DNA from: an uncultured delta proteobacterium
GTDB taxonomy: Bacteria; Desulfobacterota; Binatia; UBA9968
Direction of reading: 5' to 3'
Assembly (NCBI GenBank): GCA_963745035.1
Contig: CAVUVW010000014.1
Span: 994,754-1,058,753, forward strand
DNA: 64,000 nt
The translations under genes and the position numbers were made by a program. The notes under the pieces are model-generated. The model saw only the letters and a list, made by a program, of their open reading frames with translations, made no database searches and was not told where the DNA came from. Shown in pieces: positions 17,424 through 64,000 of this stretch; the stretch's first letter is position 1; every line of letters begins with the position of its first letter.

Positions 17424-17540
17424 TTGGGTTGCACAGGAAATAAACCGTCCTCCGGTACGCTGCCCGGGCATGATTGTAGTACGCGGCAACTGCCTACCGA
17501 GGATCGAAACCGGACAAAACCGAAGGAGAGCACATAAATC

Positions 17541-17849: not shown

Positions 17850-18034
17850 CTGGTTCGCTTCCAACTACTACGGAATGGGTTCTTACCTGTGGGTCTGCGA
17901 TCTGCTCGACCTTGAGACCTCATGGATCCGCCCGGCGCATGCATTCAGCACCGCGCGGCGTGCCGCCGTGCTGGAAGGCGCCGATGAGTACGAATTAGAG
18001 CTTGCGTGTGATTTACTGAGCGCCTAGCCATGCT

Positions 18035-43495: not shown

Positions 43496-43582
43496 TAGGC
43501 AACAGGCATCAGGCAATAGTCGGAAACCGGCAAGGGTTTGGCTCTATTCCGAAACTGTTGCCTGTTGCCTAATGCCTGTTGC
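43496..43582. repeat. Inverted heptamer repeat (GGCAACA / TGTTGCC)
   Basis: Same unit at 44215-44245 and 45680-45708. Confidence 0.75.
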
Positions 43583-47785: not shown

Positions 47786-47816
47786 TATTATTCAGTCTCT
47801 CCGAAACACCGATCTT

Positions 47817-47890
47817 ACCGCAGAGGCACAGAGAACGCAGAGTATAGCTATTTTACTCTTTCTCTCCGCGTCCTCTGCGTCTCCGCGGTG
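47817..47890. repeat. ACCGCAGAG-type palindromic repeat
   Basis: Same family as 46230-46313. Confidence 0.75.
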
Positions 47891-47903
47891 AATGCCTTCC
47901 GTT

Positions 47904-48761
47904 CTACAGCGTTAAGCCGAAGAATTTCACGGCGTTATCCAGCATGATCTTCTTCCGCACTTCGGGTTTCATGTTGACCTGCTGGAACTCCTCCAGCCAG
48001 CGCTCGACGCCGATGGCGGGCCAATCGGAGCCGAACATCGCCTTGTCTTGCAATAAGGTATTGATGTTGTGCACCAGCTCCGCCGGGAAGTACTTTGGCG
48101 CCCAGCCGGAAAGATCGATGAAATAATTTGCCTTGTGCCGCGCGATCGCGAGGCTTTCCGCGGTCCACGGCCAGGTAGGATGGGCGCTGATGATCTTCAG
48201 CTCGGGAAAATCGGCGGCGACTTCGTCGAGATGAATCGGCTGGCTGTATTTTAGCTTGATGCCCATGCCGCCGGGAGTGCCAGCGCCGGCGGCCGCCATG
48301 CCGCCGTGAAAGAGGATCGGCATGTTGAGCTTGGCGCATTGTTCCCAGAGCGGATAGAAGCGAATGTCGTTGGCGAAAAAATGCTGGCGCGCGGGATTCA
48401 ATTCGCCCATGCCGTGGAGGCCCAAGTCTTTGCAGCGCTTGATCTCGTCGAGCGCGAGCTTGCCGGTCCAAGGATCGATGGCGCCGAAGGCAAGAAAGAC
48501 GTCGGGATGCTTCTTCACCGCGCTGGCGACGTGGTCGTTCGGCACCGGAGTCAAGCCGGTGACGGTCTCATCGCGCGTGTTCATGATCACCGCCATCATC
48601 TTGCGCGCGCGGTACTGGTCCGCCATCTCGTCGATGGAAACCGGCGGCCGCTCGCGGCCGAAGTAGCGCGCCATCTGCGCGGTGCGATCGCCTTTCGCCT
48701 TCTGGGTAAATTCATCCGATAGATGAACATGCACGTCGATCCCGACGATATCTTTTGCCAT
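47904..48761 (-). CDS. Amidohydrolase_2 family (CouO-like beta-ketoacyl-CoA hydrolase type)
   Basis: IDVHVH, AHPTWPW, DLSGWAPKY, FGSDWP. Confidence 0.85.
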   Translation of the reverse strand: MAKDIVGIDVHVHLSDEFTQKAKGDRTAQMARYFGRERPPVSIDEMADQYRARKMMAVIMNTRDETVTGLTPVPNDHVASAVKKHPDVFLAFGAIDPWTGKLALDEIKRCKDLGLHGMGELNPARQHFFANDIRFYPLWEQCAKLNMPILFHGGMAAAGAGTPGGMGIKLKYSQPIHLDEVAADFPELKIISAHPTWPWTAESLAIARHKANYFIDLSGWAPKYFPAELVHNINTLLQDKAMFGSDWPAIGVERWLEEFQQVNMKPEVRKKIMLDNAVKFFGLTL

Positions 48762-48842
48762 GGTCCTGCCTCCTAGTGAATTTCCTTGTTTATTGCACTG
48801 CAATGAATTTAGTTCAAGGTGGCGGCGCCTCCGAACCGATCG

Positions 48843-48988
48843 GGTTCAAGCCGTTCAAAACGTTCAACCGCTGCGCTCCGTTCAAATCGTTTCGGAGGTT
48901 TCAAGCCGAACCATCCTCCCCCGCGGACGCGGGGGGAGGACCGAGGTGGGCTCCGCGAAACGATTGAACGGCTTAAACGAATTGAACT
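48843..48988. repeat. Inverted nonamer repeat with nested REP-like palindrome
   Basis: GTTCAA arms flank CCTCCCCCGCGGACGCGGGGGGAGG. Confidence 0.7.
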
Positions 48989-49003
48989 ACCTGGAGCGGC
49001 GCG

Positions 49004-50462
49004 CTACGCGCGTCGCTCCAAGGTCACGGAGAATCCCGGCGTCTGGACGTGGATCTGGCGGTTCTTGGTGCGCTTGGAGAGTTCCTGCAGCAAGATTCAC
49101 CAGCGGCTGCTCGGAATTCAGATACTCGAGCGGGCGCGGATCGGCGCGCATGGCGTCGATGTCTTCCTTGCCGACGATCCAGCGGAGCAGCAGCTCTTCG
49201 TCCGACGTGCCTTCGGCGCCGAGACGCTTGCGCATCTCGTCCGGCGTCGGTTCGTCGGGCGTCCACTTAGCCCATTCCTTGGCGCGCGGGCGATCGAGAA
49301 TCTTGTCTTTGACATCGGGCGCCATGTCGCGCGCGCCTTCGGCGCCGGCGTGGCCTAGCGCGAACTTGATCACCTGATCGGTCACTTCCTTATAGCGTTC
49401 GCCGACGATGACGTTGATCGCCGCCTGGCTGCCGACGAACTGCGACAATGGCGTGACCATGATCGGATAGCCGAATTCCTCGCGCACGCGGATCGATTCC
49501 TGGAGCGCTTCGGGGAATTTGTGCTCGAGTCCGACTTTGCGGAGCTGATGGCGCAGGTTGGAAAGCATGCCGCCGGGGACTTGATGCTGGTATTGCGAGT
49601 AGTCGTATTCCACCGGCGCGCCGATGGTGAAGCCTTCGCGCTTGGCGATGGCGGTGAAATGTCTGGACACCGGCTTCAAAACCTCTTCATCAATGTCGGT
49701 CTTGTAGCCCAAGGCGCGCGCGTTCTTCGCGACATTGAAAAGCGAGGGATTCGAAGTATCGTCCGCGAGCGGTGGCAACGCTGTGTTGATCGAGCGAATG
49801 CCCAATTCCATGCCCTTGATGCAGCAGAGCGGCCCGAGGCCGGTCGTGCAGTGGGTGTGCAATTCGACGGGAATGCCGTTGGCGTTTTTGAAAATGATCG
49901 GCACCAACGTTTCCATTCGCTCCGGAGTGAGCAGCCCGCCGGGATCTTTGAGGCACAGGCGGTAAGGCTTGAGTGACGCGGCTTGGCGCGTGCGCTCGGC
50001 GAAATATTCGTCGCTGTGCTTGGGCGAGACGGAGTAGATCAAGTTCAAGATCGACGCCAAGCCGGCGCGATGGCATTCGCCGACGCGAAATTTCCAGCCT
50101 TCGTAGTCGTTCCATTCGTCCGAAATCCGCGCCTCGCGGATGCCGTTGGCGGCCATGCGCTCGACGAAGAGGCGGTACATGGACGGCGGGTTGTATTCGA
50201 AGGTGTTCACCCGGCCGGCGATAAGTCGCAGCGGCGTCTTCGTGATGGCTTTCGATATCAGGCGAACGCGCTCCCAAGGATCTTCCTTCAGCTCGCGCAC
50301 GCATTTCTTGAGATGAGAGCCGGAAATCAGCTCGATCCCTTCGAATCCCGCGTCATCCAAGTTCTTCGCAATCGGCAGCATCATGCCCGTAGTCATATTC
50401 TCCGCCCACAAACTCTGATGTCCATCGCGGATCGTGGTGTCGACAAAACGAATGGTGTCCAT
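49004..50462 (-). CDS. Carboxyltransferase copy 2 (frameshift ~49092)
   Basis: Close paralog of 46328-47785; corrected C-terminus LQELSKR...FSVTLERRA. Confidence 0.88.
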
Positions 50463-50606
50463 CAAGTTTTCTCCAATCGAGAGAATCATATGAGGTGACG
50501 ACGGCAAATTCAAATCTATTGGCCGCGGTCATGAAGATTGTTGCGGGAAGGCCGAGCGCGCGCGACGAGACTATGGGTTTGAATGGTATGTAAAGATGAA
50601 AAGTGG

Positions 50607-50698
50607 TTGTAACGCCAGGTTCACCGCGCCGGCGCGGCATACAGGCCAGCGGCTGAAGAACTCGTGTGCGCCGGCTCCGGTGCAACCGCTAGTTCGGC
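50607..50698 (-). other. Integron attC site (92 bp)
   Basis: R'' GCCGAAC, L'' GGTTGCACC versus L' GGTGAACC (one extra base), R' GTTACAA; imperfect palindrome. Confidence 0.8.
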
Positions 50699-50818
50699 GG
50701 CCTGGGTCCGCTTCGTCCCGTCAATCTCGCCTCCGCCATACCCTACCTACCCCGCCACGCCAAGATGATTAGACATCCCGCTTTCGTTGCTGGTCCGCGG
50801 TTACGCAGCGGTGACCTG

Positions 50819-51283
50819 TCAACGCTCCTCATCGCCCTGTTCGGGCCCTGGCCCGACGATTTCCAAGTTATACTTCGGCGCGAGCGCCATAATCTTGTCC
50901 AGGTCAGTCGGCCCTGCGATTTCCTCAAAGAACTTCTCGAAGCCCGCTGGAGAAATGATGACCAATACCTTGGCCGACGCCGTCCCCGCTTTCGAGAACG
51001 TGTGGACGGTGCCACGGGGGACGAGCACAAACGCCCCGGCCGTCACTGTGGCGGTCCGTTCTCCGACCAGAACGTTGAGTTCCCCGTCGAGCACGTAGAA
51101 GGCTTCTTCCTCCGTGGTATGAATGTGCGGGGAAGGCCCATCGCCTACTACCGTGTGCTCGATGAGCGCATACGCGCCGCGGGTATCTTCTTTGGCAGCC
51201 TTATAGGTGTACGGGGCGCCTAACACCGAGATGGTTTTGCCCTCACCAGCACCGAGTACAATTCCGCCATCACGAAATGACAT
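50819..51283 (-). CDS. Cupin domain protein (cassette-borne)
   Basis: PHIH..EEAFYVLDG, VPRGTVH, SPAGFE; AGGAGG RBS; extended -10 TGGTATAGT at 51332-51340. Confidence 0.9.
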   Translation of the reverse strand: MSFRDGGIVLGAGEGKTISVLGAPYTYKAAKEDTRGAYALIEHTVVGDGPSPHIHTTEEEAFYVLDGELNVLVGERTATVTAGAFVLVPRGTVHTFSKAGTASAKVLVIISPAGFEKFFEEIAGPTDLDKIMALAPKYNLEIVGPGPEQGDEER

Positions 51284-51429
51284 GTTTGCCTCCTTGAGGT
51301 CAGCGAACTTCGATACGATCGCCGCAGCGAGACTATACCACAGGCCCTTGCAGTATCGATGATCGCGTTCGCGATCGGCCGCCGAACGTCCGATATGAGG
51401 GATTAGTGCCACTCTTGGACGCCATGCTC

Positions 51430-53019
51430 TTAGCGCGAAGATATAGACGGCCCAGAGCTGAGAGCTACAGCTATACAGCCAATACCAGAAAGGCTATGAA
51501 GGATCTCGCCAGAGCCGCGAATGGGCAACCAAACCTCCATACCCTCGAATACACATGTGAGCCGGTAAGTTCTCTTCAGGGCTCCCCACATCCTGTCGTC
51601 CCACTTCCGAAGACCACGGTAGCGGTCACTCTCGTGGTCCTCGGCCTCTCCTTTCCGAATGACAATGAGATCGTACATGCCCGCGTTTATTTGAGTTACA
51701 ACAGGCCCGGAGTTCCATCGGCCTCGGAGTTCGAGAACCGAATTCAAATATGGGTCGGGAATCTCCGGGGTCATGCTGTGAACTGTCACGTCTGGAAGGG
51801 TCGACAGCAACCTTCGCCCGGACACCGTGGACACGAAAGACTCCCACTTCGTCTTGCGAACTTGATAGTCGCTAACATTCGCATAACTACTTCTCAGATA
51901 CTCAAGTTCTTGCCGCAACATCGGCACAAACGCCTGCAGGAGCAATACAAAGAGCATCGCTATGACCAGTATCGGAGTGCGATTTGCCTTCCGTTGAAGT
52001 TCGCACAGTCCCGGCCCAGCCAGGACTGCCGAGGCCACTAATGGTTCCCAGAAGTAGTTTATGTTGCCTCCCACTTGCGGAATAGTGAGACTCGCCACGA
52101 GCCACGCGACAATACAGTAAATGACAAAGAGGAGCCGTTCAGGAGCACGTTTCCATAGAGCTAAGAAACCACCTATAATAGCGAGAGGCACCACTGGTTG
52201 AGACGCGGCGTTCCAAAGTATGGATAACGCCCCTGGGAATTCAAGAACCGGGTGCCGAAGAGCCGCGATGTGTTTCAGCATCAGAGGCTCACGCCACCAC
52301 ACAATTGCATATCCACCGACAACGGTCAGCGCAACGCCTGTAGCCCAGAGGACAGCCTCCTTGTATCGCCGCTGGTAGAGAAGCCAGCTAACAATAGCGA
52401 TCGGCACGGAGAAGAATGTCGGCTTAACGAGAAGTGCAATCCCGGCGCAGAATGCGGCACCGATCGCCTGCGGGCGCGCATTCGTGAGGAGGAACCAGTA
52501 AACACTCAAAAGCGACAATGCAAGTGCTAGGAAATCGCCTCGAATCTGAGTTGTCCAGAAAGCTAGCGGATGCGCAGACACGGCGAATAGGGCGCAAAGC
52601 CACGCGATCGGGCGCGAGCCGTACAGTCGTCTGCTGATCAGGAATATGAGTAAAACGCACAGGCACAGCGCGCACACTATAACGAGTCGCACCAGCACCT
52701 GAGGAGTGATGCCAACGGCTTGCGCCAACCTATAAGGAACTGTAAGCAGGACATAAGTCAATGGCCCGTAAATAGTAACTAGATATGGAGGGCGATCGCT
52801 GTCAGGATAGATATGACCAGAACGGATGACTTGCTCAATTCTAAGCAGAGTGGCGCTGTCCGGATAATCCACGTCCCTAAAGTTCGCCAGCCCGAGAGCC
52901 GTGCCAACTGCTGTACACAAGGCACCTGCCAGCAAGAGGGCAACCACCGATCCACCCAATAGCGACTTTCGCCGCAGTGCTTTAACCACGCGCCCAACAG
53001 TCCACGCTTCATGCCGCAT
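51430..53019 (-). CDS. Polytopic membrane glycosyltransferase (GT-C, ArnT/PMT-like)
   Basis: YGPL, R.D, LVKP motifs, many TMs; atypical codon usage. Confidence 0.65.
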   Translation of the reverse strand: MRHEAWTVGRVVKALRRKSLLGGSVVALLLAGALCTAVGTALGLANFRDVDYPDSATLLRIEQVIRSGHIYPDSDRPPYLVTIYGPLTYVLLTVPYRLAQAVGITPQVLVRLVIVCALCLCVLLIFLISRRLYGSRPIAWLCALFAVSAHPLAFWTTQIRGDFLALALSLLSVYWFLLTNARPQAIGAAFCAGIALLVKPTFFSVPIAIVSWLLYQRRYKEAVLWATGVALTVVGGYAIVWWREPLMLKHIAALRHPVLEFPGALSILWNAASQPVVPLAIIGGFLALWKRAPERLLFVIYCIVAWLVASLTIPQVGGNINYFWEPLVASAVLAGPGLCELQRKANRTPILVIAMLFVLLLQAFVPMLRQELEYLRSSYANVSDYQVRKTKWESFVSTVSGRRLLSTLPDVTVHSMTPEIPDPYLNSVLELRGRWNSGPVVTQINAGMYDLIVIRKGEAEDHESDRYRGLRKWDDRMWGALKRTYRLTCVFEGMEVWLPIRGSGEILHSLSGIGCIAVALSSGPSISSR

Positions 53020-53156
53020 GTCGCCACACTGCTAACAATTGACTCCTCCCGATTGATACCCGAGGACCGAAGTGAGTTGTCGTGAAATCGGAAGGTTTTC
53101 TCATCGCCACTTAAACCTAAACGCGCGTAAATCGGAACATGTACTTTGCATGGCCA

Positions 53157-53465
53157 CTATAACCTGGTAGCTGCCGATTCTGGGCCTTTTGGAATCGTCT
53201 CTTCAACCTCGGCTGCAGAGTCGACGCGAAAACAGAAGTCATGGAGGCCCGGAGAATATGGCTCATGTTTGGACACGACGCGGGCGGGACGTAGGACAAA
53301 GCCAAAGTGCCGGCAGGCATATTGGATATGCGGCTCGTCACTTAGCGCAAATGCGTTCTTACGAAAGCCGAGCGCGTGGACCAGAACGAGATCGGAGAAC
53401 CGCTCGGACACTGCAAGATCGGATACCGCTATGTAGATGTGATCGATCCCAGTGACTTCAATCAT
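53157..53465 (-). CDS. VOC family protein, probably decayed/truncated (first cassette position)
   Basis: GIDHIYIAVSDL..SERF, PGLHDFCFRV; no DPDG end; AGGAG RBS just after GTTAGCC. Confidence 0.65.
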   Translation of the reverse strand: MIEVTGIDHIYIAVSDLAVSERFSDLVLVHALGFRKNAFALSDEPHIQYACRHFGFVLRPARVVSKHEPYSPGLHDFCFRVDSAAEVEETIPKGPESAATRL

Positions 53466-53491
53466 GCGCTTCTCCTGTGCGTTGCTCAGCG

Positions 53492-53640
53492 GGCTAACTA
53501 TTAAATGAGCCGCCATAGGCGCAGACAATCACGAATTTGCTTATTCCAACGACGGCTTGGACAATAGAAGTTCAAATCGTGCAATATTCATCAGCTAACC
53601 CGGGTGTTGTCAACGTCGCGATTTTCCTGGATAGCCCGTA
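53492..53640 (-). promoter_or_regulatory. attI-like leader A with TTGACA promoter candidate
   Basis: Homologous to 63111-63260; similarity stops at core GTTAGCC (53498); TTGACA at 53608-53613. Confidence 0.55.
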
Positions 53641-53828
53641 AAAATTTTGACGGCAGATTTTGGCTGTTGACCATGGTCAGTTGTTACTCTTCAATTTTGC
53701 TGAACGATGCCCCCAATCAATCACAGCTGAGGTTCGTTCCGGTTTTGATCCGCTGGGTGACGGTTGACTTATGATTTAATCTGCGGCTACTTGATGGGCC
53801 GATAGCGGGTTATTTTCGGAGGAGTCGA

Positions 53829-54584
53829 ATGGCAGGAGCTTCGCAGTTGAGGTCGGAGTGGGTGGAGTATTCGAGCGGGGGCGCAGCGATACGCGCCTAT
53901 TTCAGTGTGCCGCAGGGAAGAGGACCGTGGCCGGGCGTCGTCATGATCCACGAGAATCCGGGCGTTACCGAGCATCGCATGGACGTGACGCGCAGGTTGG
54001 CGGCGGCCGGGTACGCGACGATTACTCCGGACTTATTTTCCCGCGTCGGCGGCAAACCGCCCAGCGGCGCGTCGGACGTCGAACGGCGGCAGAAGATCGA
54101 TATCGCACTGCCCGACGATCAGGTCTTCAACGATTTGATGAACGGTTACGGGTACCTCAAGAGTCGCCCCGAGACGATCGCCGACCGCATCGCGCTTTAC
54201 GGTATCTGCATGGGTGGGGGTAAAGGTTTCAACACGGTTTGCCGCACCGACGTGTTTCGCTGCTTCGTCGATTTCTACGGGCCGATCATCGTCAAGGCGG
54301 AAGTTACACCGGACGGCAAGGAGCGTTCCTATTTGCCTATGGCGCCGGCGCTCTCTTGTCCAATGCAGTACCACGTCGGCGATCAAGACGTTGTGTGCCC
54401 GCCGGGCCATGTCGCGCAATTGCGAACTTTACTTCAACGCCATAATAAGCAAGCCGAGTTCTTCGTCTATCCGGCCGCCGAGCATGCCTTCCACGACGAT
54501 TCGGCACGGCGTTATGCGCCGGAGAGCGCGGAGCTTGCCTGGAGCCGGGCGCTCAAATTTTTTGACGCGCACCTTAAGGCTTGA
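53829..54584 (+). CDS. Dienelactone hydrolase family
   Basis: IHE..G, GICMGG nucleophile, D and HAF triad. Confidence 0.9.
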   Translation: MAGASQLRSEWVEYSSGGAAIRAYFSVPQGRGPWPGVVMIHENPGVTEHRMDVTRRLAAAGYATITPDLFSRVGGKPPSGASDVERRQKIDIALPDDQVFNDLMNGYGYLKSRPETIADRIALYGICMGGGKGFNTVCRTDVFRCFVDFYGPIIVKAEVTPDGKERSYLPMAPALSCPMQYHVGDQDVVCPPGHVAQLRTLLQRHNKQAEFFVYPAAEHAFHDDSARRYAPESAELAWSRALKFFDAHLKA

Positions 54585-54608
54585 ACCGGTTTTTCCCTAA
54601 CAGGAGGA

Positions 54609-55604
54609 ATGATGAGGATGGTATCCATACGCGCTTTGCTGGCGCTCACTGTGCTTAGCTTCCTTTTTCCGAACGCTTCGGCGCTCGCCGCTGCTGCCGG
54701 CCAGCCGCCCATGCGCATCGCCTTGACGGCCTACTCGTCGTCCAACTGGCAGATCTTCGCGGCGGTAAAGCGCGGCTTTTTCAAGCGTGAGAACCTCAAC
54801 GTCGAAGTGATCATGCTGCGCTCGAGCGTGCTCCAGACCCAGGCGCTGCTTGCCAACGATATACACATGAACACCTACTCGATCGACTCGGCGGCAAAGC
54901 CGGTACTGCAAGGCGCGCCGATCAAATTGATTGGCACGGGGCAGGAAAAGCCTAGTTTTCGCGCGATTGTTTCAAAAGATATTCGTAACTGGAACGATCT
55001 CAAGGGCAAAACGCTGGCAGCGGGCAGTCCGGGCGGCGCCTTCTACACCATGTTCGCCAGCATGATGGCGGTCAACGGCATCAAAAAGTCGGATTACACT
55101 TACCTGAGCATCGGACGCTCCACCGACCGCATCGGCGCCATGCGGGCTGGGCAGATTCAGGGCTGCCTGATCGGCCAGCCGGACGATTTCGTGCTGCTGG
55201 ATGACGGCTTCAAGAGCCTCGGCTTTACCCAAGACTATCTCAAAGACGTGCAGTACGCCGGCTTCGCGGTGAATGGCAAGTGGGCGGAGAAAAACGAAGA
55301 GACGCTGGTGGCGACCATGCGCGCGTTGGTGCGGGCGACGCGCTGGCTGCACGACCCGGCCAATAAGAAAGAAGCCTTGGCGGTTCTGCTCGATTACTTT
55401 CCCAACTGGAAGCCGAGCTGGCAGGAGCAGACCTACGATATGCTCATACGCCAGAAAATGATGTCGACCGACGCGCGGCCGAACATGAAAGGCATCGAGA
55501 ACTTTCTCAAGCTCGCCGTGGACCACGGCGGCCTATCCGCAGTGCCGCCGCTGGAAACCTGGGTCGATCGCAGCTACGTCGAGAAAGCGAGCCGATCGTT
55601 ATGA
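54609..55604 (+). CDS. ABC substrate-binding protein (NMT1-like)
   Basis: Signal peptide, GFFKRENL, DLKGKTLA. Confidence 0.88.
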   Translation: MMRMVSIRALLALTVLSFLFPNASALAAAAGQPPMRIALTAYSSSNWQIFAAVKRGFFKRENLNVEVIMLRSSVLQTQALLANDIHMNTYSIDSAAKPVLQGAPIKLIGTGQEKPSFRAIVSKDIRNWNDLKGKTLAAGSPGGAFYTMFASMMAVNGIKKSDYTYLSIGRSTDRIGAMRAGQIQGCLIGQPDDFVLLDDGFKSLGFTQDYLKDVQYAGFAVNGKWAEKNEETLVATMRALVRATRWLHDPANKKEALAVLLDYFPNWKPSWQEQTYDMLIRQKMMSTDARPNMKGIENFLKLAVDHGGLSAVPPLETWVDRSYVEKASRSL

Positions 55605-55781
55605 TCCACGAAGTTAGCTTGCTACTCTCAAATTTGTGAGACGGCAAATCCCGAGTTCCTTCCCCCTTCACGGGGGAAGGTTAGAATAGGGGTGATTCAC
55701 TGCCTTGCAAGAAACCTTTCATCGAGGGAAAAAATTCACACCAAAGTTCTACGATGAAGCACATGCTCTTATTGATAGCGC

Positions 55782-56561
55782 TTATGATCCCAACGGAAGT
55801 TTTCCTGCCCGAATATCCGCAGCATAGTTTGTAATAGCTTCGAGGACGACCTTCGCCACGTTGGCGTAGCGCGGAATGGAGTCGCTGAGCGCGCCGGCGC
55901 CCAGTCCGACGGTGCGAAATAGCGTTCTGATCTGCCCGTCCGAGCTGCCGTCATTGCCGAGGCCGCACATGACGGGAATTTTTACCGCCTGCGTCACCGG
56001 TCCGGTCGCTGCGCCGCCCCAGGTCAAGTCCAGGATCGAAGCGCCGGCCTGCTCCAGCGCTTTCGCGGTTTCGACGAGTTTGTCCGTGCTGATCGTCGCT
56101 CCCGACTCCCACCCGCCCAGGTGCGCCGAGGTCTGCGGTGTGAGACCAAACTGCGCGAATACTGGAATGCCGGCGCGGGCGATGGCCGCGACGATGTCCG
56201 TTTGCGCCGCGGTGACTTCAAGCTTTACGCAGTCGGCGCCGGCTTCCTTGACCAGCCGCACCGCGTTGCGCACGGCGTCTTCGGCGCTCACCTGGTACGA
56301 GCCGAACGGCAAGTCGCAGGAGAAAAGAGCGTTCTTGACGCCGCGGCGCACCCCTTTGGCGAGCATTAAGATTTCATCCAGCGTCACGGCTTCCTGGTTT
56401 TCCTGGCCAAGCAGGTTGTGGCCGCAGGAATCGCCGAGCGAAACGATGTCTGCGCCGGCGCGGTCGGCGATCAGCGCGGATTGGTGTTCGTAGACGACAA
56501 CGCCGACGATTTTTTTGCCTTCGCGCTTCATCTGCGCCAGTTTCGGAATGGTGACAGCCAT
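55782..56561 (-). CDS. PanB-like (ketopantoate hydroxymethyltransferase family) protein 1
   Basis: GDS, DLPFGSY, VKLE, GLTPQ; divergent active site. Confidence 0.75.
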   Translation of the reverse strand: MAVTIPKLAQMKREGKKIVGVVVYEHQSALIADRAGADIVSLGDSCGHNLLGQENQEAVTLDEILMLAKGVRRGVKNALFSCDLPFGSYQVSAEDAVRNAVRLVKEAGADCVKLEVTAAQTDIVAAIARAGIPVFAQFGLTPQTSAHLGGWESGATISTDKLVETAKALEQAGASILDLTWGGAATGPVTQAVKIPVMCGLGNDGSSDGQIRTLFRTVGLGAGALSDSIPRYANVAKVVLEAITNYAADIRAGKLPLGS

Positions 56562-56604
56562 GACGTGTGCCTTTCTCTTATGTATTGAGGGCGGGAAATC
56601 GCCT

Positions 56605-57393
56605 CTAACGGTCTCGTCCTTTGCCTAGGTTGCCTGCCTTGACGTCCGCGGCGTACGCGTTGACCGCATCGAGCAGCGCCCGCGCGAGATTGGCGTAGCG
56701 CGGGGTGTCGTCGTCGAGCGCGGAAACGGTCCAGCCCGCGAGCCGATTGACCTGGAGAAATTGTCCGTCGCCGTCGGCGCTCGTACCGCGGCCGCCCAGA
56801 ACCGGGATCTTGACGGCATCGACCACGCGCCGGGTGGCTGCGCCGCCCATGGTCAGATCCAAAGCGAAGGCGCCGGCTTGCTCCAGCGAGCGCGCGAGAT
56901 CGATCAGCTCATCATCCGAGATCTTGCGGCGCGCTTCTTCGAAACCGCCAAGCCGCGCCTGGAGCTGGGGCGTTGCGCCGATATGCGCCATCACCGGGAC
57001 GCCGGCGCGCGAGATCGCCGCGACGGCGGCGATGCTCCCGCGATCGCTTTCGATCTTGACGCCGTCGGCGCCGCCTTCCTTCACCAGGCGAATGGAATTG
57101 CTCACGCTGTCTTCGACGCTGGCGGAACAGGCGCCGAAAGGCAGGTCGACCAGAAGAAAAGGCCGCTTAATAGCGCGGCGCGCGCCGCGGCAGAGCAGCA
57201 ACAGCTCTTCCGTCGTGGTTTCCCTGGGCGAGCGGTGGCCGAAGATGTTGACGCCGGCCGAATCGGCGATCAGAACGATGTCGACCGCCGAACGGTCGAT
57301 AATTTCAAGCGAACGAAAGTCTGCCGCGAGCACGGCGGCGATCTTGCGGCCGTCCCGCTTCATTTGCTGGAGAACCGGCACGGTGACTCTCAT
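56605..57393 (-). CDS. PanB-like protein 2
   Basis: ADS, DLPFG, VKIE, HIGATPQ. Confidence 0.75.
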   Translation of the reverse strand: MRVTVPVLQQMKRDGRKIAAVLAADFRSLEIIDRSAVDIVLIADSAGVNIFGHRSPRETTTEELLLLCRGARRAIKRPFLLVDLPFGACSASVEDSVSNSIRLVKEGGADGVKIESDRGSIAAVAAISRAGVPVMAHIGATPQLQARLGGFEEARRKISDDELIDLARSLEQAGAFALDLTMGGAATRRVVDAVKIPVLGGRGTSADGDGQFLQVNRLAGWTVSALDDDTPRYANLARALLDAVNAYAADVKAGNLGKGRDR

Positions 57394-57434
57394 CGGGTTT
57401 ACCGGGTAGGATGACTGCGAGGCGCGATTGCCTC

Positions 57435-57704
57435 TCAGGGATTCACTTTCGCTGGAAAATGCGGACTGTGGGTGAAGATTTTCTCATGCTCGATGCCGAA
57501 GACTCGGGTGTATTGCCGGATCAAGATCGGATGAACTTCCATCTTGCGCAGCGCCCACGCGTCGACTTCTTTGAGAATGCGTTTTTCGTCATCGGTCAGC
57601 GGATAGCGATTCAGTACGCTGTCTTGATCGGCTTTGAAGTGTTTTTTTAGCGGCGGGTTGCGATCGAGCTCCCAAATGAATTTCTGAATTTGATACGCGC
57701 TCAT
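57435..57704 (-). CDS. LigA-like small subunit of extradiol dioxygenase
   Basis: YQIQKFIWEL, F..D..VL.RY.LTDDE, VHP. Confidence 0.7.
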   Translation of the reverse strand: MSAYQIQKFIWELDRNPPLKKHFKADQDSVLNRYPLTDDEKRILKEVDAWALRKMEVHPILIRQYTRVFGIEHEKIFTHSPHFPAKVNP

Positions 57705-57718
57705 ATTGATCTCGCGGG

Positions 57719-58567
57719 TCAGATCTTCGCTGTCTCGGTGTTCATCCGCAGCAGGCCGGCGCCCGTGCCCCAGCCTTTCATCGCTTCGTAGAGCATCACC
57801 TCGCCGGTGGCCCCCGCGACCGTGCCGGCCATGGCGAGCCACATGCGGATTTCATTCATGCCGTTGCCGCCCTGGGTATCGATGAACTCCTGAGTCCAAT
57901 GATCAATGATTTCATCGACGCGGTTGCTCGCCAGCAGATCGAGAAATTGGCGATCGAGTTCGGGATTGATGAAACCGTACTCCGGCACGCCGACGGTGTG
58001 CGACATGCCGCCGGTGCCAAGCACGGCGATGCGCTCATTTTCAGCGCGGCCCTTGAGGATCTCACCGACGGCCCGGCCGAGTTCGTAGCAACGTCGCAGC
58101 GACGGGCGCGGCGGAATGGCCACGTTGAGAACGATCGGCACGATGGGCACATCGTGCTCCGGCGTGAGCCGCTCGATGGGCGAGTAAAACGAATGATCCA
58201 GGCGCAGCTCTTCGGCGGAGTTGAGATCGAAGCCCCGTTCGACGGCCTTGGCAAGGATATCGCGGGCGAGCGCTTGGTGCACTGGGACACGGAAGGTTGC
58301 GGCCACGTCGCCGGACAGCACGCCTTCGTCCCAGGCATCGCAGTCGGCGCCGACACCGATGCAGAAGCGCGGCACGAGATTGTAAAAGAACGATTTGAAA
58401 TGGTCAGAGCCGAAGATGATCAGCGCATCCGGCTTGGCCGCGCGCAGCTCGTCGCGCAGCCGGTCGAAGGCTTGTTTGACGCGCTCACCCTGTTCGCCGG
58501 CGCGCTTGATGCCGATAAGTATCGCGCCCACGTGCGGCACGCCGGCGGCGAAAACGATACGACCCAT
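57719..58567 (-). CDS. LigB-family extradiol ring-cleavage dioxygenase
   Basis: PH, SDHF, LDHS, GTGGMSH, GNG.NEIR.W. Confidence 0.9.
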   Translation of the reverse strand: MGRIVFAAGVPHVGAILIGIKRAGEQGERVKQAFDRLRDELRAAKPDALIIFGSDHFKSFFYNLVPRFCIGVGADCDAWDEGVLSGDVAATFRVPVHQALARDILAKAVERGFDLNSAEELRLDHSFYSPIERLTPEHDVPIVPIVLNVAIPPRPSLRRCYELGRAVGEILKGRAENERIAVLGTGGMSHTVGVPEYGFINPELDRQFLDLLASNRVDEIIDHWTQEFIDTQGGNGMNEIRMWLAMAGTVAGATGEVMLYEAMKGWGTGAGLLRMNTETAKI

Positions 58568-58584
58568 GATCTTCTTACCTGCTT

Positions 58585-59643
58585 CTAACCGGCGATGATC
58601 GCCCGACCTGAGGGAATTTCTTCGTTGACTGAGCGCCACGATCGGCCGCCGTCCGTGCTCTGGTAGACTGCGCCGTGATCGATTGACCCATAGATTTTGT
58701 CCGACATTTTCCCCGGTGCTTCGAATACTCGGGAGACTTCGTCGCCGGCGACGAGCCAGAGATTGTCCGGATTCTCGGGATCGATGGCGAACTCGTAGAG
58801 CATGAGCTTGGTGCCTTTGGCATCGCCCACGTCCATGGTGCTCCAGCTGTCGCCATCATTTTCGGAGAGATAAACCTGCGCGCGCGCTCCTTCCGGATGA
58901 TTGGCCCAGTGAGGCGGCTCGCCGATGCCGGCGGCGAATAAAATGCGCTCCGGCTTCTCGGGATGAAAGCTAAAGTCGTAGCCGAAGCGGCCAAGCCCCG
59001 CGCTCAAATGTTTCCAGGTCTCGCCGCCATCCGCGCTGCGAAAGAAACCTTCGTGGCCGCCGGCGGCATAAACACGCTTTTGATCGCGGGGGTGGAGGCG
59101 CACGGTATGGATGTCGAGATCGAGATTTCTGAAGTCCGTCCAGCTCTTGCCGCCGTCGCTGCTGCGCACCACGCCGCCGACCTGGACCGCGCCGAAGATC
59201 ACATTGCGGTCATACGCGCTCGGCGCCACCGAACGGATATGAGTGCCGACCACCGGCAGGGGATAAAACCATTTCGATGCGCCGGCGCAGCTATTCAAGT
59301 CGCCCAATCTCGTCCAACTTTTTCCACCGTCGGCGGATTTGTAAATCTGCGCCGGTTCACCCCCTGCATACAGTTCGTCGGGGCTGCCGGGGTGATCCTG
59401 AAGGGCGTGCAGTTTGGCCATCTCGGGCGTTCCCGCGCCTTGCCAGGATTGACCCGCGTCGTCGCTGTAAAACGCGCCTTTGCCGTGGGTGGCGGCCCAT
59501 AGGCGATTTCGTTCCCGCTGAAAGATCAGGTCAGAAACTTCCACGCCCTCGAGCGCACGGTGGGCCACGCGCCAGCTATCGTTGCTCGCGCGGCTGAGCG
59601 CGAAGAAGCCCTTTTTTGTGCCAACAAAAAGTGTTTTGGCCAT
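58585..59643 (-). CDS. BNR/Asp-box beta-propeller protein
   Basis: Repeated SxDGGxSW boxes; no signal peptide. Confidence 0.85.
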   Translation of the reverse strand: MAKTLFVGTKKGFFALSRASNDSWRVAHRALEGVEVSDLIFQRERNRLWAATHGKGAFYSDDAGQSWQGAGTPEMAKLHALQDHPGSPDELYAGGEPAQIYKSADGGKSWTRLGDLNSCAGASKWFYPLPVVGTHIRSVAPSAYDRNVIFGAVQVGGVVRSSDGGKSWTDFRNLDLDIHTVRLHPRDQKRVYAAGGHEGFFRSADGGETWKHLSAGLGRFGYDFSFHPEKPERILFAAGIGEPPHWANHPEGARAQVYLSENDGDSWSTMDVGDAKGTKLMLYEFAIDPENPDNLWLVAGDEVSRVFEAPGKMSDKIYGSIDHGAVYQSTDGGRSWRSVNEEIPSGRAIIAG

Positions 59644-59833
59644 GAGTTTGGAAACGGATCTCGTGAAGTTTTTTCCAAGTAGGAAGAGTCGATTGCATTT
59701 AGTATACGAGCCCTATGAGGGAGTCAAGGCGATCATTGCGGCCATCAAGGAATGTTTCACTCGCATTGGCGCTAGTGGTGAAATTTGCTATAGATTGCCA
59801 CCATTCGTCGGAAGAACGAAGCGAGGAAACGTC

Positions 59834-60894
59834 GTGAGAGCAGTGCGATTCTACGAATACGGCGGTCCGGAAGTGTTGAAACTGGAGGAGGTGCCGGCGC
59901 CGTCCCCGGCCGCGGGCGAAGTGTTGCTAAAAGTCTGCGCGACCAGTATTCGGCGCAACGACGCCAACATGCGCGCAGGGCAGGACGGTTATTTTCGTGC
60001 GCAATTGCCGTTTCAATTGGGCCGCGAGTCGAGCGGCCTGGTGACTGCTGTCGGCGCCGGCGTCACGGGTTGGAAAGAGGGCGACGAAGCGATCACGCGC
60101 AACATCACGCCCTGCGGAGTTTGTGACACTTGCCGAGGCGATATGCCGGAGATGTGCCGCAAGCCGCGCTATCAAGGCGTTTCTTCGTGGGGCGGCTACG
60201 CGGACTTCATTACGGTGCCGGCAGCCAGTCTCATTCGCAAACCGGCCGGGCTTCGCCACGATCAAGCCGCCAGTTTTCAGGGCAGCACGCTGACGGCCTG
60301 GCACAATATCATTGCGTTGGGCCGGTTGAAAGCCGGCGAGGTTCTGCTTGTTCCCGGCCGCCAATGGATCCCTCGGCAGCGGTGCCATCGGCATTGCGCG
60401 ACACGCTCGGCGCGCGCAGCATCGCCCTAGTGCGCGGGGCCGAAAAGGCTCGCAGGCTAAAATCTTTCGGCGCGGCGGAAGTGATCGACACGAGCGCCGA
60501 AAACGTGGTCGAGCGAGTCAAAGAACTGACCGGCGGGCGGGGTGTAGATTTGATTTTCGATACAGTGGGAGGGGAGAGCTTCGAGAAGCTTGCGACCACG
60601 ATCAAACCGAACGGCCGGATCGTTGTCCCCGGCAGCGCCGCCGGCGAGGCGCTCACGTTCCGAGTCTCGCCATTGATCTTCAACCAGGCGACCGTTTTGT
60701 TTTCCAAGGGCAGCCGGCCCGATGAATGCGAACAGGTCCTAGCGCTTCACGCCGAGGGAAAATTGCAGGTCGCCATCGGCCATGTTTTCCCGCTGGAACA
60801 GGCTGCGGATGCTCACCGGGTCTTCGAGTCGCGCCAGCAGTTCGGCCGCGTGCTGCTCGACGTAGCGAACATCGGACTCCGCGCCAACGCTTGA
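59834..60894 (+). CDS. Zinc-binding alcohol dehydrogenase/MDR family (frameshift ~60360)
   Basis: GGPEVL, CGVCDTC...C, GVDLIFDTVG, FGRVLL. Confidence 0.88.
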
Positions 60895-61053
60895 GAGCTT
60901 CGGACACAGCTTCGTATTGCCGTTCGAAATTTTTCGCTACCTTGCAGCAATGATCGGCAAGCTTCAAAGACACCCGATCATCTCTGATCTTTGCGTCTTG
61001 GCAGGAAATTCTTCCGAGATTGCTTCCAGCGCGGCGCGCTGGGCGCCCGCGAT

Positions 61054-61809
61054 TTATCTTTTCTTCGTTGGCTTAGAAGATTTTCGCTCGCTTGCTGACG
61101 GTTTGGCTGCGGCTCGCGCTTCCTCGTCGTAGTGCTTCTTGGTGAACCAAAGCGCCAAGCCGCCGTCGCCGGGCGGCAGGTTCTTGTGGAAGTCGATCAG
61201 ATGCTGATCGAGCACCTGCGGCGTGCCTAGAGTAGCCGCCCAGATCTGCTGCTGGGCGGCTTGCTCGAGGTAAAGCGTGCTTTGCACGGCGTGGGCGATG
61301 CTCGAACCGACAACCACCGCGCCGTGACCTTTGAGTAACGCCGCCGGCCGATTGCCGAGGGTTTCGGCCAAGCCCTCGCCGAGCTCTTGAGTATTGACCA
61401 TGTCGCCGCCGTAGATCGGAATGCCGTGCTCGAAGGGTGCGGACTGGTGCGTGATCGCGAAAACCGATTTGCCCGCCATGCTGAGCGCCGTGGCGATCAG
61501 CGGATGAGTATGGATGACACTCTGCACGTCGGGCCGCGCTTTGAAGATCGCCGTGTAAAGCGGCAGTTCCCACGGCACGCGGCGCTCGCCTTCGATCACT
61601 TTACCATCGTAATCGAACGTCATGATCGTATTGGGATTGTCCGGCGGCGGCGCGACCCGCACGTGCTTGAGCATAAAGCCGTCGCGCCCGCTTTCCTTCG
61701 GCAAGCGGACCGCGATATGGCCCCACGGGTCGCCCAGTTCTTGAAACAGCAGACGCGTGCCGAAACGAAGATCGGTGACGAGGCCGTCCAGATTTTTCTT
61801 CGTTTTCAT
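61054..61809 (-). CDS. Class II aldolase/adducin family
   Basis: WGH, ELPLY, VIHTH, LKGHG. Confidence 0.88.
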   Translation of the reverse strand: MKTKKNLDGLVTDLRFGTRLLFQELGDPWGHIAVRLPKESGRDGFMLKHVRVAPPPDNPNTIMTFDYDGKVIEGERRVPWELPLYTAIFKARPDVQSVIHTHPLIATALSMAGKSVFAITHQSAPFEHGIPIYGGDMVNTQELGEGLAETLGNRPAALLKGHGAVVVGSSIAHAVQSTLYLEQAAQQQIWAATLGTPQVLDQHLIDFHKNLPPGDGGLALWFTKKHYDEEARAAAKPSASERKSSKPTKKR

Positions 61810-61829
61810 TCTGTCCTTAAGCGTCCCAC

Positions 61830-61976
61830 GAGCCCGAAATCAGCCTCGATACCTTCGAATCCCGCATCGTCCAAATTCTCCGCGATCGGAAGCATCATGC
61901 CCGTAGTCATATTCTCCGCCCACAAACTCTGATGCCCGTCGCGGATCGTGGTGTCGACAAAGCGAATGGTGTCCAT
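61830..61976 (-). pseudogene. Truncated 5' copy of the carboxyltransferase gene
   Basis: MDTIRFVDTTIRDGHQSLWAENMTTGMMLPIAENLDDAGFEGIE, near-identical to 50317-50462, then breaks off. Confidence 0.9.
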
Positions 61977-62032
61977 GAAGTTTTTCTCCAGTCGAAGGGA
62001 TCATATGGGCTGCAGGCGGCAAATTCAAATCT

Positions 62033-62302
62033 CTTCGCGCGCCGCGAGGAACTTCTATGTCGCGAAGATGTCGGCGACCAGGAGCGAGACGCCAACAAAC
62101 CGCCCGACCAGCTCCCCGGCTCTCTGGAGTCGGAAGGGTCCACACTCTCCAGGGCGAGCTGGCCCTCGCCGGTAGCCATTGCGCCCCAACCCATTTCGTC
62201 GCTTCGGTATGCTGTGGCCATCCCGAGAGTTTCAGTGTAGAAGCGAATGGCCCGCTGCCAGTCCGTGACAAAGACCCTCACGTTGGAGAGTTTATAATTC
62301 AC
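62033..62302 (-). pseudogene. Truncated VOC family cassette gene
   Basis: VRVFVTDWQRAIRFYTETLG; frameshift to LVGRFVGVSL, then a stop and truncation at 62033. Confidence 0.75.
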
Positions 62303-62326
62303 GCGACCTCCTGTCTCCGTCATGTT

Positions 62327-62386
62327 GCCTAACGTTTTGGGTGAAAGGCGCGGTCCGCCGCATCGTTCTCAACCCAATCGTTCGAC
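62327..62386 (-). other. Integron attC site (60 bp)
   Basis: R'' GTCGAAC ... TTGGGTTGAG / TTCACCCAA ... R' GTTAGGC. Confidence 0.8.
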
Positions 62387-62509
62387 GCCTCATCGAATCC
62401 GACCATCGCCCACGGGGCCGCAAGCCGCCACGAGACACAGCTTGCCCCTGCGATCCCCCTGCGTGGCCCAGGGATCAGTCGATGGCACAGCTGGTCACCA
62501 AAGCCGCAC

Positions 62510-63027
62510 CTACTTGGCTCGCTTCCAGACAATTTCAAGTGTCTCGCCGGACGACGTCCTTGGATTGGTGAACTTCAGTTCGTCCGCCGTGAGCGAGGTA
62601 ATAATTCGTTTCTGATCGGTCCCGATCATGTTCGCGAACGTACTTCCCTCAACTTGGGCGGTGATGACCTTATCCGCCTCGTTAATCGAGTATGTGCCAT
62701 AGTAGGCGATCGATCCTTCCACCACGGCTTGGGATTCTTCCGCGGTCCCCCGCTCTCGGTCAGGGTTCGCCAACTTGGGAAGGTCAGCGCGCACACTCAC
62801 AAAAGCAAAGTGGCCGTCGCTTGTATAGATCAGGATGCCTTTCAGATTGGGGCGGTCGGTTTTGCTGCCATCGGCTCGGATAGTGGTCCTCGAGACGAAC
62901 ATCCACGTTCCGACGAGCTGATCTTTGAGTGACTTTTGCTGGGCGACGGCATCGCTCTCGGGCAACGCAACTCCCAGAACCAGTAGTGAGACCATGGTCG
63001 CAGTGAGGGCTTTTCAATTGGTCTCAT
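62510..63027 (-). CDS. Lipocalin-like domain secreted protein (cassette-borne; frameshift ~63000)
   Basis: LKDQLVGTW, GILIYTSDG, AYYGTY, WKRAK; GGAGG RBS before ATG 63027. Confidence 0.8.
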
Positions 63028-63110
63028 GATCCTCCCCCCTTGAAAGGTTTTCTTTGCCGCGCGTGCGCGGTGTTCATGATCAGCTAGTGCTAGTGGAACC
63101 GGCCGCGAGC

Positions 63111-63260
63111 GTCGAACGTATTAAGTGAGCCGCCGTAGGTATCAACAATTACCGGTCGGCCTATCCCCGCGACGAGCGCGAAGAACAAAAATTGAAATCG
63201 CTTGCAATATTCGTTTGCAAACGGAGCTTTGTCAATATTTTGATTTCCGGGATAAGCCGA
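63111..63260 (-). promoter_or_regulatory. attI-like leader B with TTGACA promoter candidate
   Basis: Homologous to leader A; core GTTCGAC at 63117; TTGACA at 63230-63235. Confidence 0.55.
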
Positions 63261-63447
63261 CCTGGCGTGGCGGGTTATCTCCCTAACGATCGGCGGGCTA
63301 TTTCGGTGACGGACTCTAGTTTAAAGTAAAAACCTATTTCAGTATCTCCGCCATTTTCGCGACCAAGGCGGGCTCGAGTTGAATAAACTGCCGACGATCT
63401 TTTCGACTTCTTCGCCAGTCCGCGATGCGTATGCTCCCCGCCGGGCA

Positions 63448-63969
63448 CTAGGAATCGCGGAAATCGGTAACACGGGAGGGGCGCAGGCTGGCCGTGATGC
63501 GCCGGCCCGCGCTTAGATGAGGGTCGGCGGGCGCGCGCGTCTGTACGGCGTACTCGAGCAGCAGGCCGTTGGGATCCTTGAAGTAGATCGACAGCACCCA
63601 CTCGTGATCGACGATCGGCGTGACCTTGACACCTTTGGCAATCAGCTCGGCGCGCTTCGCGTGCAACTCTTCGACCGAGCCAGCGTTGAAGGCGAAGTGG
63701 TAAATCCATTCGGGCAGGCCGAGGACTTGATTGATGCTGGTGTCATATTCGGCTGGTAGTCCTTTGATACCGTGAGGTTCCATGAATCCCAGGAGTTGGC
63801 CATCGCCGCAGTCGAAAAACGCGTGGCGGATACATCCCCCTTCTTTGAAATCGATCTGCTCAATGGTCACGAGGCGGAAGCCGAGCACATCCTCGTAGAA
63901 GCTGCGTGTCGCAGCAAGGTCGAGCGTCGAAAGGCCGATGTGTGAAACGCCATGTAGCGGGATGTGCAC
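63448..63969 (-). CDS. VOC/glyoxalase family protein
   Basis: GVSHIGL, YHFAF, SIYFKDPNG.LLE. Confidence 0.9.
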   Translation of the reverse strand: MHIPLHGVSHIGLSTLDLAATRSFYEDVLGFRLVTIEQIDFKEGGCIRHAFFDCGDGQLLGFMEPHGIKGLPAEYDTSINQVLGLPEWIYHFAFNAGSVEELHAKRAELIAKGVKVTPIVDHEWVLSIYFKDPNGLLLEYAVQTRAPADPHLSAGRRITASLRPSRVTDFRDS

Positions 63970-64000
63970 CTCCGTTCACTAGGATTGCTTGAATAGGTGT

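Follow-up and report, generated by a model that had tools for sequence, protein, structure and literature searches.

How does a chromosome come to hold two gene-cassette arrays that open with the same leader, when neither leader adjoins an integron integrase gene (intI)? This question is raised by the final 64 kb of contig C14 (hereafter the window; the contig ends at window position 64000) in G000, the metagenome-assembled genome of an uncultured Binatia bacterium, where arrays A and B lie on the minus strand around a catabolic gene cluster. An earlier note on this DNA had described the layout as a leader, cassettes, a shared terminus and the 5' end of a carboxyltransferase (CT) gene, occurring twice, and all of these parts are indeed present in both places. 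We propose that leaders A and B are, with good probability, lineage-specific copies of an integron attachment site (attI) with a built-in cassette promoter (Pc), which would provide extra landing-and-expression platforms served by an integrase in trans.

G000 was compared with relatives that are designated by other G-numbers, while C-numbers denote contigs of G000. All genomes compared are metagenome-assembled, and the relatives are not independent of one another.

The leaders resemble the attI site of one integron lineage

A profile of the leader family was built from the first BLAST matches and searched by nhmmer. Leaders A and B both match it (E = 1.4e-48 and 4.8e-54, respectively), and they also align with each other. 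The full module is about 190 nt long and consists of repeated ATA(A/G)GCCG.C boxes, a putative TTGACA / (G/A)ATATT promoter and a simple site, the latter made up of two inverted 7-mers around a 6-nt spacer with GTTAGGC at its end.

The position of the module in relatives indicates what it may be. In G021 a complete leader begins about 25 nt past the intI stop codon, reaches GTTAGGC and is followed by the first open reading frame (ORF), and in G007 the leader begins 50 nt past an intI fragment. The G003 copy and the second copy on C6 still have about 35–45 nt of the intI 3' end ahead of the leader. On C6 the attI site lies downstream of the intI stop, ends in ...CACTTAATA GTTAG and is colinear with the leader, with three ATA(A/G)GC.G boxes, a TTGAC -35 element and the core. 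Four other intI lineages of the genus carry other sequences on an equal plan after intI (direct repeats, TTGACA, proximal repeat, core). Because of this position after intI, the colinear C6 attI and the like plan in the other lineages, we regard the leader as the putative attI+Pc module of one integron lineage in this Binatia genus, with attI downstream of intI and with intI and cassettes pointing one way.

Members of the leader family are thus found between intI and the first cassette, as is typical of attI, and the two window copies are not. The simple site has the GGCTCAC / TTAATA / GTTAGGC pattern at a column identity of 0.92–0.95, an attI likeness of pattern and boundary only. A long attC site was also considered for the leader and was ruled out, since there is no inverse core upstream.

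Leader copies are dispersed and mostly lack an adjacent integrase gene

G000 holds at least 13 leader copies without adjacent intI, distributed over 11 contigs (E<=3.4e-14; 13 of the 20 matches listed by nhmmer). All 13 end in ...CTCACTTAATA GTTAG, and the aligned sequences are unrelated directly past this core. A tblastn search for intI remnants up to 3 kb upstream and 5 kb downstream of the 13 copies found none (best E 0.19). When the 13 contexts were compared all against all by BLAST, similarity was limited to about 190–240 nt and stopped at the core, the only exception being the CT repeat described below. Hairpins of the attC type lie downstream of 11 of the 13 copies, and at 10 of the 12 sites listed the first ORF begins 11–53 nt past the core. 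These first ORFs belong to different families: luciferase-like monooxygenase, methyltransferase, Na/Ca-exchanger-like, PsiE, SBP_bac_3, bicupin, small kinase, NACHT ATPase and lipocalin. Three are without a clear Pfam family, two of them having no match and ORF 1 of array A being weakly VOC-like. The proposal in the earlier note of a dispersed solo attI/promoter is largely supported by these findings: the leader is homologous to the intI-to-cassette interval of relatives and occurs in 13 copies with different genes past each, while intI-adjacent copies exist in G021 and G007 and a colinear variant on C6.

The leader was detected in 17 of the 24 other genomes of the genus that were searched (at most 6 matches each). 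A second family had it in 3 of the 5 genomes searched, and a third in 0 of 11. At E<=1e-40, intI was found in 13 of the 24; at this threshold the search gave none in G003, G004 and G018 (completeness 88%, 92% and 80%), which have 5, 3 and 6 leader matches, respectively. Among the leader matches listed for relatives, an adjoining intI match was present in G021 and G007 alone. Twelve public stretches contain the exact core; intI adjoins it in one and a 56-residue remnant in another, and in two the flank is too short to judge. Public records with the exact 21-nt core are labelled Candidatus Binatia or uncultured delta proteobacterium, apart from one labelled Nitrospira and one Syntrophobacter.

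On the left side of the leaders, three kinds of junction recur. In six G000 copies, G018 and G017 the leader is joined to one half, the right one, of an abundant hairpin repeat; at leader B and in C22, G013 and G006 it is joined to a binding-protein gene at the 3' end of that gene; and in the third kind it is joined to the 3' end of intI.

The hairpin repeat itself is about 75–80 nt long with 14-nt perfect arms and occurs genome-wide (for example at C11:128500-149500, C13:1118800-1125800 and C14:129600-135800). A pattern search at up to 2 mismatches on both strands gave 95 matches, some of them by chance. The repeat often lies directly past genes ending in ...ARADKVIK and often a few bases past an attC core, and six leaders have just its right half as their left junction; possibly the repeat represents a second class of recombination site. 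G000 also has intI-less copies of a second attI type, at C21:139600-139724 with fragments at C21:132531-132607 and 136222-136251; this type adjoins an intact intI in the relative G006 (84% identity over 125 nt).

Conservation of the orphan modules and probable turnover of their cassettes

A conservation profile was computed from 19 aligned copies without an intI end. Column identity was highest in the proximal repeat and the simple site (0.92–0.95), followed by the -10 hexamer (0.89), the -35 hexamer (0.83) and the distal repeats (0.75–0.81); it fell to 0.49 in the ten columns directly past the core and to 0.37 farther downstream. The orphan modules are thus conserved where integrase and RNA polymerase would bind. 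The TTGACA-18-AATATT element of leader B has 10 of 12 matches to the promoter consensus and is the best promoter-like site in 50300-64000, a region with 9 such sites against 4.4 expected.

We then compared the leader copies at G000 C14:613k and G018:C15, which mark an orthologous orphan site without intI in the flank. Upstream of it, synteny extends over 14 kb at 82–97% identity, with genes for a NapC/NirT cytochrome and a succinate dehydrogenase subunit in the flank, and the proximal 1.66 kb, which includes the half-hairpin junction and the leader, is 97.7% identical. Homology stops right past GTTAGGC, and the two genomes have nothing in common downstream, where attC-like hairpins lie at +1.8, +3.8 and +4.8 kb in G018 and at +1.2 kb in G000. 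Unrelated arrays at an orthologous orphan site argue for cassette turnover without a neighbouring integrase. In addition, the first cassette of the intact integron of G012 is 93–94% identical to C23:83577-83709 and to C26:81636-81744, the latter being cassette 2 of the leader array on C26. CT orthologues reach no more than 82–87% identity, far below these values, which suggests recent cassette exchange within the genus.

Variation of the window arrays themselves was seen in metagenome runs, for which the evidence (X1, X3, X6, X8) consists of contigs. An X8 contig leaves the window sequence at 51385, past the GTT after the GT-C ORF, and enters hairpin-repeat-like sequence, and X6 contigs diverge at 62329, past the GTTAG of the lipocalin attC. 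In run X1, one contig connects 62032, where the CT promoter block begins, with 63285, in the GTT within the distal repeat of leader B, across array B; run X1 has zero depth over the lipocalin region. For this joint, the right half of an empty core was considered and rejected, as no array copy has GTT before AGATTTG. Joints with short sides were given no weight (X8 62382-63120, with a side of 20; X8 51102-58448; X6 54192-60629), nor was the X8 joint 50276-61941, which fits a paralogue. A search for recent turnover at leader A found no close orthologue with a leader there.

Cassettes and attC sites in the window

The features of both arrays are collected in Table 1. Leader A ends in GTTAGCC, with the crossover G at 53498, and its distal repeats are not recognisable, the distal third being lost or degenerated; leader B ends in GTTCGAC.

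Table 1. Features of the two arrays and of the region between them in window coordinates; motif positions within the leaders were counted by hand (VOC', the truncated VOC of array B; DR, repeat)
Feature	Position	Strand	Evidence or remark
Native CT promoter and full gene	48987..50517	minus	Pfam, orthologue alignments
Array A attC-like hairpin, 92 nt	50607..50698	minus	fold; covariance model
Array A ORF 3, cupin	50819..51283	minus	PF07883, E 7.3e-16
GTTCGGC after GT-C ORF, putative cassette boundary	51387-51381	minus	X8 contig divergence at 51385
Array A ORF 2, 529-aa membrane glycosyltransferase-like (GT-C)	51430..53019	minus	PF13231
Array A ORF 1, 102 aa, weakly VOC-like	53160..53465	minus	start 33 nt past core
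Leader A, putative degenerate attI+Pc	53492..53640	minus	alignments, family profile
Leader A simple site, crossover GTT at 53498	53511-53492	minus	by alignment
Leader A DR3-like box	53545-53534	minus	by alignment
Leader A -10 AATATT	53588-53583	minus	19-nt spacer from -35
Leader A -35 TTGACA	53613-53608	minus	by alignment
Catabolic cluster between arrays	53829..61809		Pfam
Second CT promoter copy and first ~50 codons	61829..62032	minus	repeat alignments
Array B cassette 2 remnant, VOC' without attC	62033..62326	minus	PF00903, E 1e-6, residues 13-70 only
Lipocalin-cassette attC, 60-nt hairpin, bulged base, end GTTAGGC	62327..62386	minus	fold; covariance model
Array B cassette 1, lipocalin-like ORF	62510..62995	minus	PF13924, E 1.2e-19
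Leader B, putative full attI+Pc module	63111..63304	minus	alignments, profile; crossover GTT at 63117
Leader B simple site	63131-63111	minus	by alignment
Leader B DR3, proximal repeat	63165-63154	minus	by alignment
Leader B -10 AATATT	63211-63206	minus	by alignment
Leader B -35 TTGACA	63235-63230	minus	by alignment
Leader B DR2	63280-63266	minus	by alignment
Leader B DR1, distal repeat	63304-63281	minus	upstream GTT inside, 63287-63285
Solute-binding-protein gene 3' end, fused to leader B	63334..63419	minus	alignments
Full-length VOC/glyoxalase gene, upstream of leader B	63448..63969	minus	PF00903, E 2.1e-17

The gene calls of the earlier note held for array B, where Pfam supports both the lipocalin and the truncated VOC and the attC site is the best model match in the window. 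For array A they held in part: the cupin and the attC-like hairpin were confirmed, the GT-C score (26.1 bits) is exactly the PMT_2 cut-off of PF13231, Pfam did not confirm ORF 1 as VOC (E 0.039, below cut-off), and a Pfam search of the supposed remnant ORF at 50353-50685 found nothing. The cupin of array A has an 88% identical copy in G013.

To detect attC sites we used a covariance model made from 8 attC sites of G000, all outside the window, with the structure set by hand from single folds. A first MAFFT alignment of mixed-length sites (A1) was not structural and stayed unused, and RNAalifold on alignment A2 gave only 3 pairs, hence the structure by hand. The model was run over the whole 64-kb window on both strands with filters off (E<=10) and gave 17 matches. 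The best was 62386->62327 (42.7 bits, E 2.8e-8) and the second-best 50698->50609 (18.8 bits, E 0.028), with the remaining 15 at E>0.25. These two best matches fit an attC site, which is defined as an imperfect hairpin with inverse core, bulged bases and a GTTRRRY core; in the hairpin of array A the right core is degenerate (GTTACAA) and is followed by a spacer of about 90 nt and the CT gene. On 200 kb of other loci the model gave 20 matches at E<=0.1, namely the 8 training sites, 4 opposite-strand echoes and 8 new ones (on C3, C17, C10 and C6, two in G013 and two in G018). Each of the new matches either follows a leader, on the strand of that leader, or precedes the CT promoter.

Two other detectors were tried. 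A heuristic based on arm alignment gave 218 matches in the genome against 248 in a reversed-genome control and was dropped. A scanner based on constrained folding gave an approximately 2.5-fold enrichment downstream of leaders, together with opposite-strand echoes, and missed about 3 of 7 hand-identified C6 sites; it was taken as a pointer only. The first heuristic also flagged an 88-nt palindrome of GGCAACAGGCA-type units at window 43497-43584. An Rfam search of 50000-64000 (E<=1) found no family.

The twin layout and the carboxyltransferase gene

The segments 50331-50523 and 61845-62038 are direct repeats 11.5 kb apart, with 92% identity across 140 nt and 81% across 57 nt; another alignment gave 88% across 209 nt. 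They contain about 55 nt of upstream sequence and about 50 CT codons. The native CT copy has a promoter-like TTGAAT-17-TATGAT at 50513-50485 and its ATG at 50462; the second copy has the same element at 62028-62000 and the ATG at 61976, and is cut off before the aldolase gene. Homology of the CT locus with G013, G015, G006, G045, G043 and G046 begins 50–70 nt upstream of the ATG, at AGATTTGAATTT. Since this promoter-like block stands at the start of homology and in both CT copies, the shared terminus AGATTTGAATTTGCCG, which the earlier note had included in the layout of its integron-like platforms, is best read as the -35 region of the CT gene's own promoter and not as an integron feature.

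Cassettes with attC sites lie directly upstream of the CT promoter block in G013, G015 and G006. About 1.05 kb upstream of CT, G006 has a complete gene for the binding protein together with the 5' portion of a leader, which is the layout of array B. DLH and CT are about 145 nt apart in G018 and G020, and array A (50462-53853) is therefore a 3.39-kb insertion relative to them. The CT fragment of array B shares 88% identity with the A copy, 88.8% with G013 and 88.0% with G015, so that the duplication is old or one copy is foreign. Rather than two independent captures, the twin layout would thus be one conserved array locus, composed of binding-protein gene, attI, cassettes and CT promoter, that was copied or recombined around the catabolic cluster, and the order of the rearrangement events is inferred only. 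Upstream of array B, the junction between the binding-protein gene and the leader recurs on contig C22, in G006 and in G013.

The catabolic cluster comprises genes for DLH, an NMT1-like binding protein, two PanB-like proteins, LigB, a BNR protein, a split alcohol dehydrogenase (ADH) and a class II aldolase, and its part 53853-58662 is syntenic with G018. The zinc ADH at 59582-60894 consists of overlapping frames (ADH_N 59582-60430, ADH_zinc_N 60130-60894), and an X8 contig is one base short at 60356 within it; the split may be a polymorphism or an assembly error. Window 46328-50513 holds two paralogous CT genes, 73–80% identical and 2683 nt apart, around an amidohydrolase_2 gene, and this CT - amidohydrolase_2 - CT trio is conserved across the genus. 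Contig C22 (7547 nt) has a full binding-protein gene, two copies of its 3' end, a leader and then a NACHT ATPase gene; it resembles the region upstream of array B (80–89% identity), of which it may be a paralogue or a strain variant.

All 20 sequencing runs with matches had a share of at most 0.18, and we therefore make no claim on habitat. Public metagenome contigs of at least 99% likeness cover much of 50000-64000 and come from four runs of four studies.

The integrase gene on contig C6

A search of the genome with TIGR02249 gave 12 matches, of which the only one over the cut-off (445 bits) lies on C6. The window accordingly has no intI adjacent to either array, in agreement with the earlier note, and neither array qualifies as a complete integron in this search. 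The C6 gene encodes a protein 79% identical to the C-terminal half of the broken gene of G021.

The sole complete integron of G000 lies inside an SOS mutagenesis operon (locus L017, C6:26000-45500; approximately 2262-17975 of that locus). The order is lexA; intI and attI with four cassettes (PsiE, NT5C-like, catechol dioxygenase, GFA); imuA-like (RecA fold) and imuB-like (IMS) genes; a 23S-rRNA-IVP protein gene and a small ORF; an orphan leader with cassettes (SBP_bac_3, 3-HAO, amidohydrolase); and a dnaE2-like gene for DNA polymerase III alpha. Short GTTCAA/TTGAAC repeat clusters occur around intI and the imu genes (L017 about 17270-17350, 10600-10680 and 10090-10150) and recur in intergenic regions at C11:3248, C13:1729285, C24:32253, C27:328408 and C9:51049.

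Weighing the explanations

According to the mechanism that we propose, an integron integrase would act on the folded attC of a circular cassette and place the cassette at G|TT, and Pc would then drive its transcription. The 13 intI-less modules most likely still act, or acted until recently, as platforms for an integrase encoded elsewhere; we infer integrase binding, capture in trans and Pc activity from the sequences. A further-reaching version, to which we give somewhat less than even credence, is a distributed, many-headed integron. In it, one intI within a lexA-imuA-imuB-dnaE2 operon would serve a dozen or more selectively maintained platforms dispersed over the chromosome, several cassettes would occupy an expressed first position simultaneously, and platforms would multiply without intI.

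Several observations weigh against platforms served in trans. In the C6 intI the frame changes after ...YTHVL, within the last ~14 codons: the match to the family ends at position 301 of 315, the 13 canonical C-terminal residues are encoded in another frame and a 31-residue tail is added, with the catalytic region kept. The change could be real or an assembly error, and since it affects the only intI above the cut-off, G000 may lack a working integrase. In the relatives G021 and G007, the intI beside this leader type is broken or partial. Leader A is without distal repeats and has a degenerate DR3 and a 19-nt promoter spacer; in leader B the spacer is 7 nt long and the right core is unusual. 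By the narrow 8-site model there is one attC per window array, 11.7 kb apart, and none was found after ORFs 1 and 2 of array A or after VOC'; moreover, the score of 62386->62327 is inflated, as two training sites come from its own attC subfamily. The hairpin scanner had low selectivity: in the 8 kb that follow 14 sites it gave 20 candidates, where about 8 were expected and the upstream control gave 14. At the orthologous site, synteny between G000 and G018 did not resume within the 6–17 kb examined downstream, and the site could therefore be a larger rearrangement breakpoint instead of a simple cassette swap. Finally, the proposal does not account for how the orphan modules multiply.

The decay of intI in G021 and G007 and its frameshift in G000, the intI 3' remnants beside the C6 leader and the G003 copy, and the degenerate state of leader A would all be expected if the platforms were fossils, that is, remnants of complete integrons after deletion of intI, with no insertion since and with cassette differences that predate the loss. 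Cury et al. also name loss of intI among the origins of clusters of attC sites lacking an integrase (CALINs; PMC4889954). What this account does not readily accommodate is the left junction that six G000 copies share with those of G018 and G017: it is half a hairpin repeat and not intI, so that an intI-less unit would have multiplied after the loss, yet the first cassettes now differ. The orthologous site in G000 and G018 has just this junction and unrelated arrays, and the functional boxes are conserved in intI-less copies. We therefore consider fossil platforms unlikely. The leader is a discrete unit of 190–240 nt, flanked in almost every copy by DNA that is unrelated on either side. This and the strong promoter consensus inside it would also suit a small mobile promoter element that is not attI, that lands at GTT sites ahead of genes and that neighbours intI at times by mere association, either resembling a miniature inverted-repeat transposable element (MITE) or being an ORF-less cassette, a kind that is known (PMC4889954). 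Such an element is improbable here, because the aligned copies show no terminal inverted repeats or target duplications, there is no left inverse core or attC-type fold, the leader fills exactly the interval from intI stop to first cassette in G021 and G007, and analogous modules occupy that position in other intI lineages.

It is very hard to credit that the twin layout or the leader junctions stem from chimeric assembly or binning, even though the assembly is in 28 contigs with an estimated contamination of 5.8%, the contig ends just upstream of array B and C22 resembles a variant of the same locus. Contigs of at least 99% likeness from other studies bridge leader A to DLH (X8, 53467-54465; X3, 53565-54154) and the aldolase to the CT fragment (X1, 60921-61934), so that the misassembly which the earlier note had named as a possible refutation was not borne out. 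The repeat copies are only 88% identical and would not collapse or be mis-joined, and the leader family and its layouts recur in many other genomes.

Relation to known systems

The attI1 site of class 1 integrons has accessory direct repeats, a simple site and a nearby Pc. In architecture, which is the basis of this comparison, the leader resembles it: repeated boxes precede a simple site built of inverted repeats, the crossover would fall at the G|TT of a GTTRRRY-type core, and a promoter points into the first cassette. It differs in its length of about 190 nt, in the promoter being between the repeats, and in lying downstream of intI rather than upstream and divergent.

In the 'inverted' group of integrons (e.g. 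the Treponema type), intI is in the orientation of the cassettes. The co-orientation of intI, attI and cassettes on C6 and in G021, G006, G012, G014 and G015 is a likeness to this group in orientation. Orphan attI copies are not known to belong to the description of that group. Cassette arrays are 'most frequently' opposite to intI according to Cury et al. (PMC4889954).

That study describes CALINs as attC arrays without nearby intI (originally at least 2 attC within 4 kb), which may co-exist with a complete integron, and proposes intI loss, rearrangement and insertion in trans as their origins (PMC4889954). The window arrays are similar in being attC-bearing without adjacent intI, with a complete integron elsewhere in the genome. 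They differ in that each is headed by a recognisable, conserved, multi-copy attI with its own putative promoter. Since attI is given there as unknown outside classes 1–3 (PMC4889954), CALIN definitions cannot see such heads. With one attC per window array by the model, the arrays are candidate rather than strict two-attC CALINs.

Two further reports concern sites away from intI. In clinical arrays, partial attI copies in cassettes of the Delta-attI type are recombination-proficient (Sci Rep 2026, PMC12901181); these likewise are attI or partial attI copies away from intI, but as described there they are remnants that form the downstream site of a resistance cassette in one plasmid array, whereas here whole modules head separate chromosomal arrays. 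At attG sites, an integrase in trans places cassettes at non-att genomic positions (bioRxiv 10.1101/2022.09.11.507474); attG sites are minimal motifs in ordinary DNA, unlike the conserved attI homologue of about 190 nt with a putative promoter seen here. A search of the open-access literature by phrase found no report of solo, orphan or duplicated attI sites, and none on integrons in Binatia.

The arrangement had been put forward as undescribed, and this holds for one side of it: CALINs and their possible origins are already in print, and the conserved multi-copy attI+promoter heads appear to be new. The novelty would be that CALIN-like arrays keep such a module, which multiplies and changes its cargo with no integrase next to it. 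In bacteria, cassette clusters that lack an integrase are common, and their origin and activity are treated as open questions in the literature cited here. As attI is unknown outside a few clinical classes, it could not be asked whether such clusters retain a landing site and promoter. In this genus, the attI of the whole group can be read from sequence and reveals mostly integrase-less copies, conserved boxes and differing arrays at orthologous sites. If the orphan platforms are active, the integron would be a genome-wide network with many expressed entry points rather than one locus, and the way in which cassette expression and integron 'loss' are counted would change.

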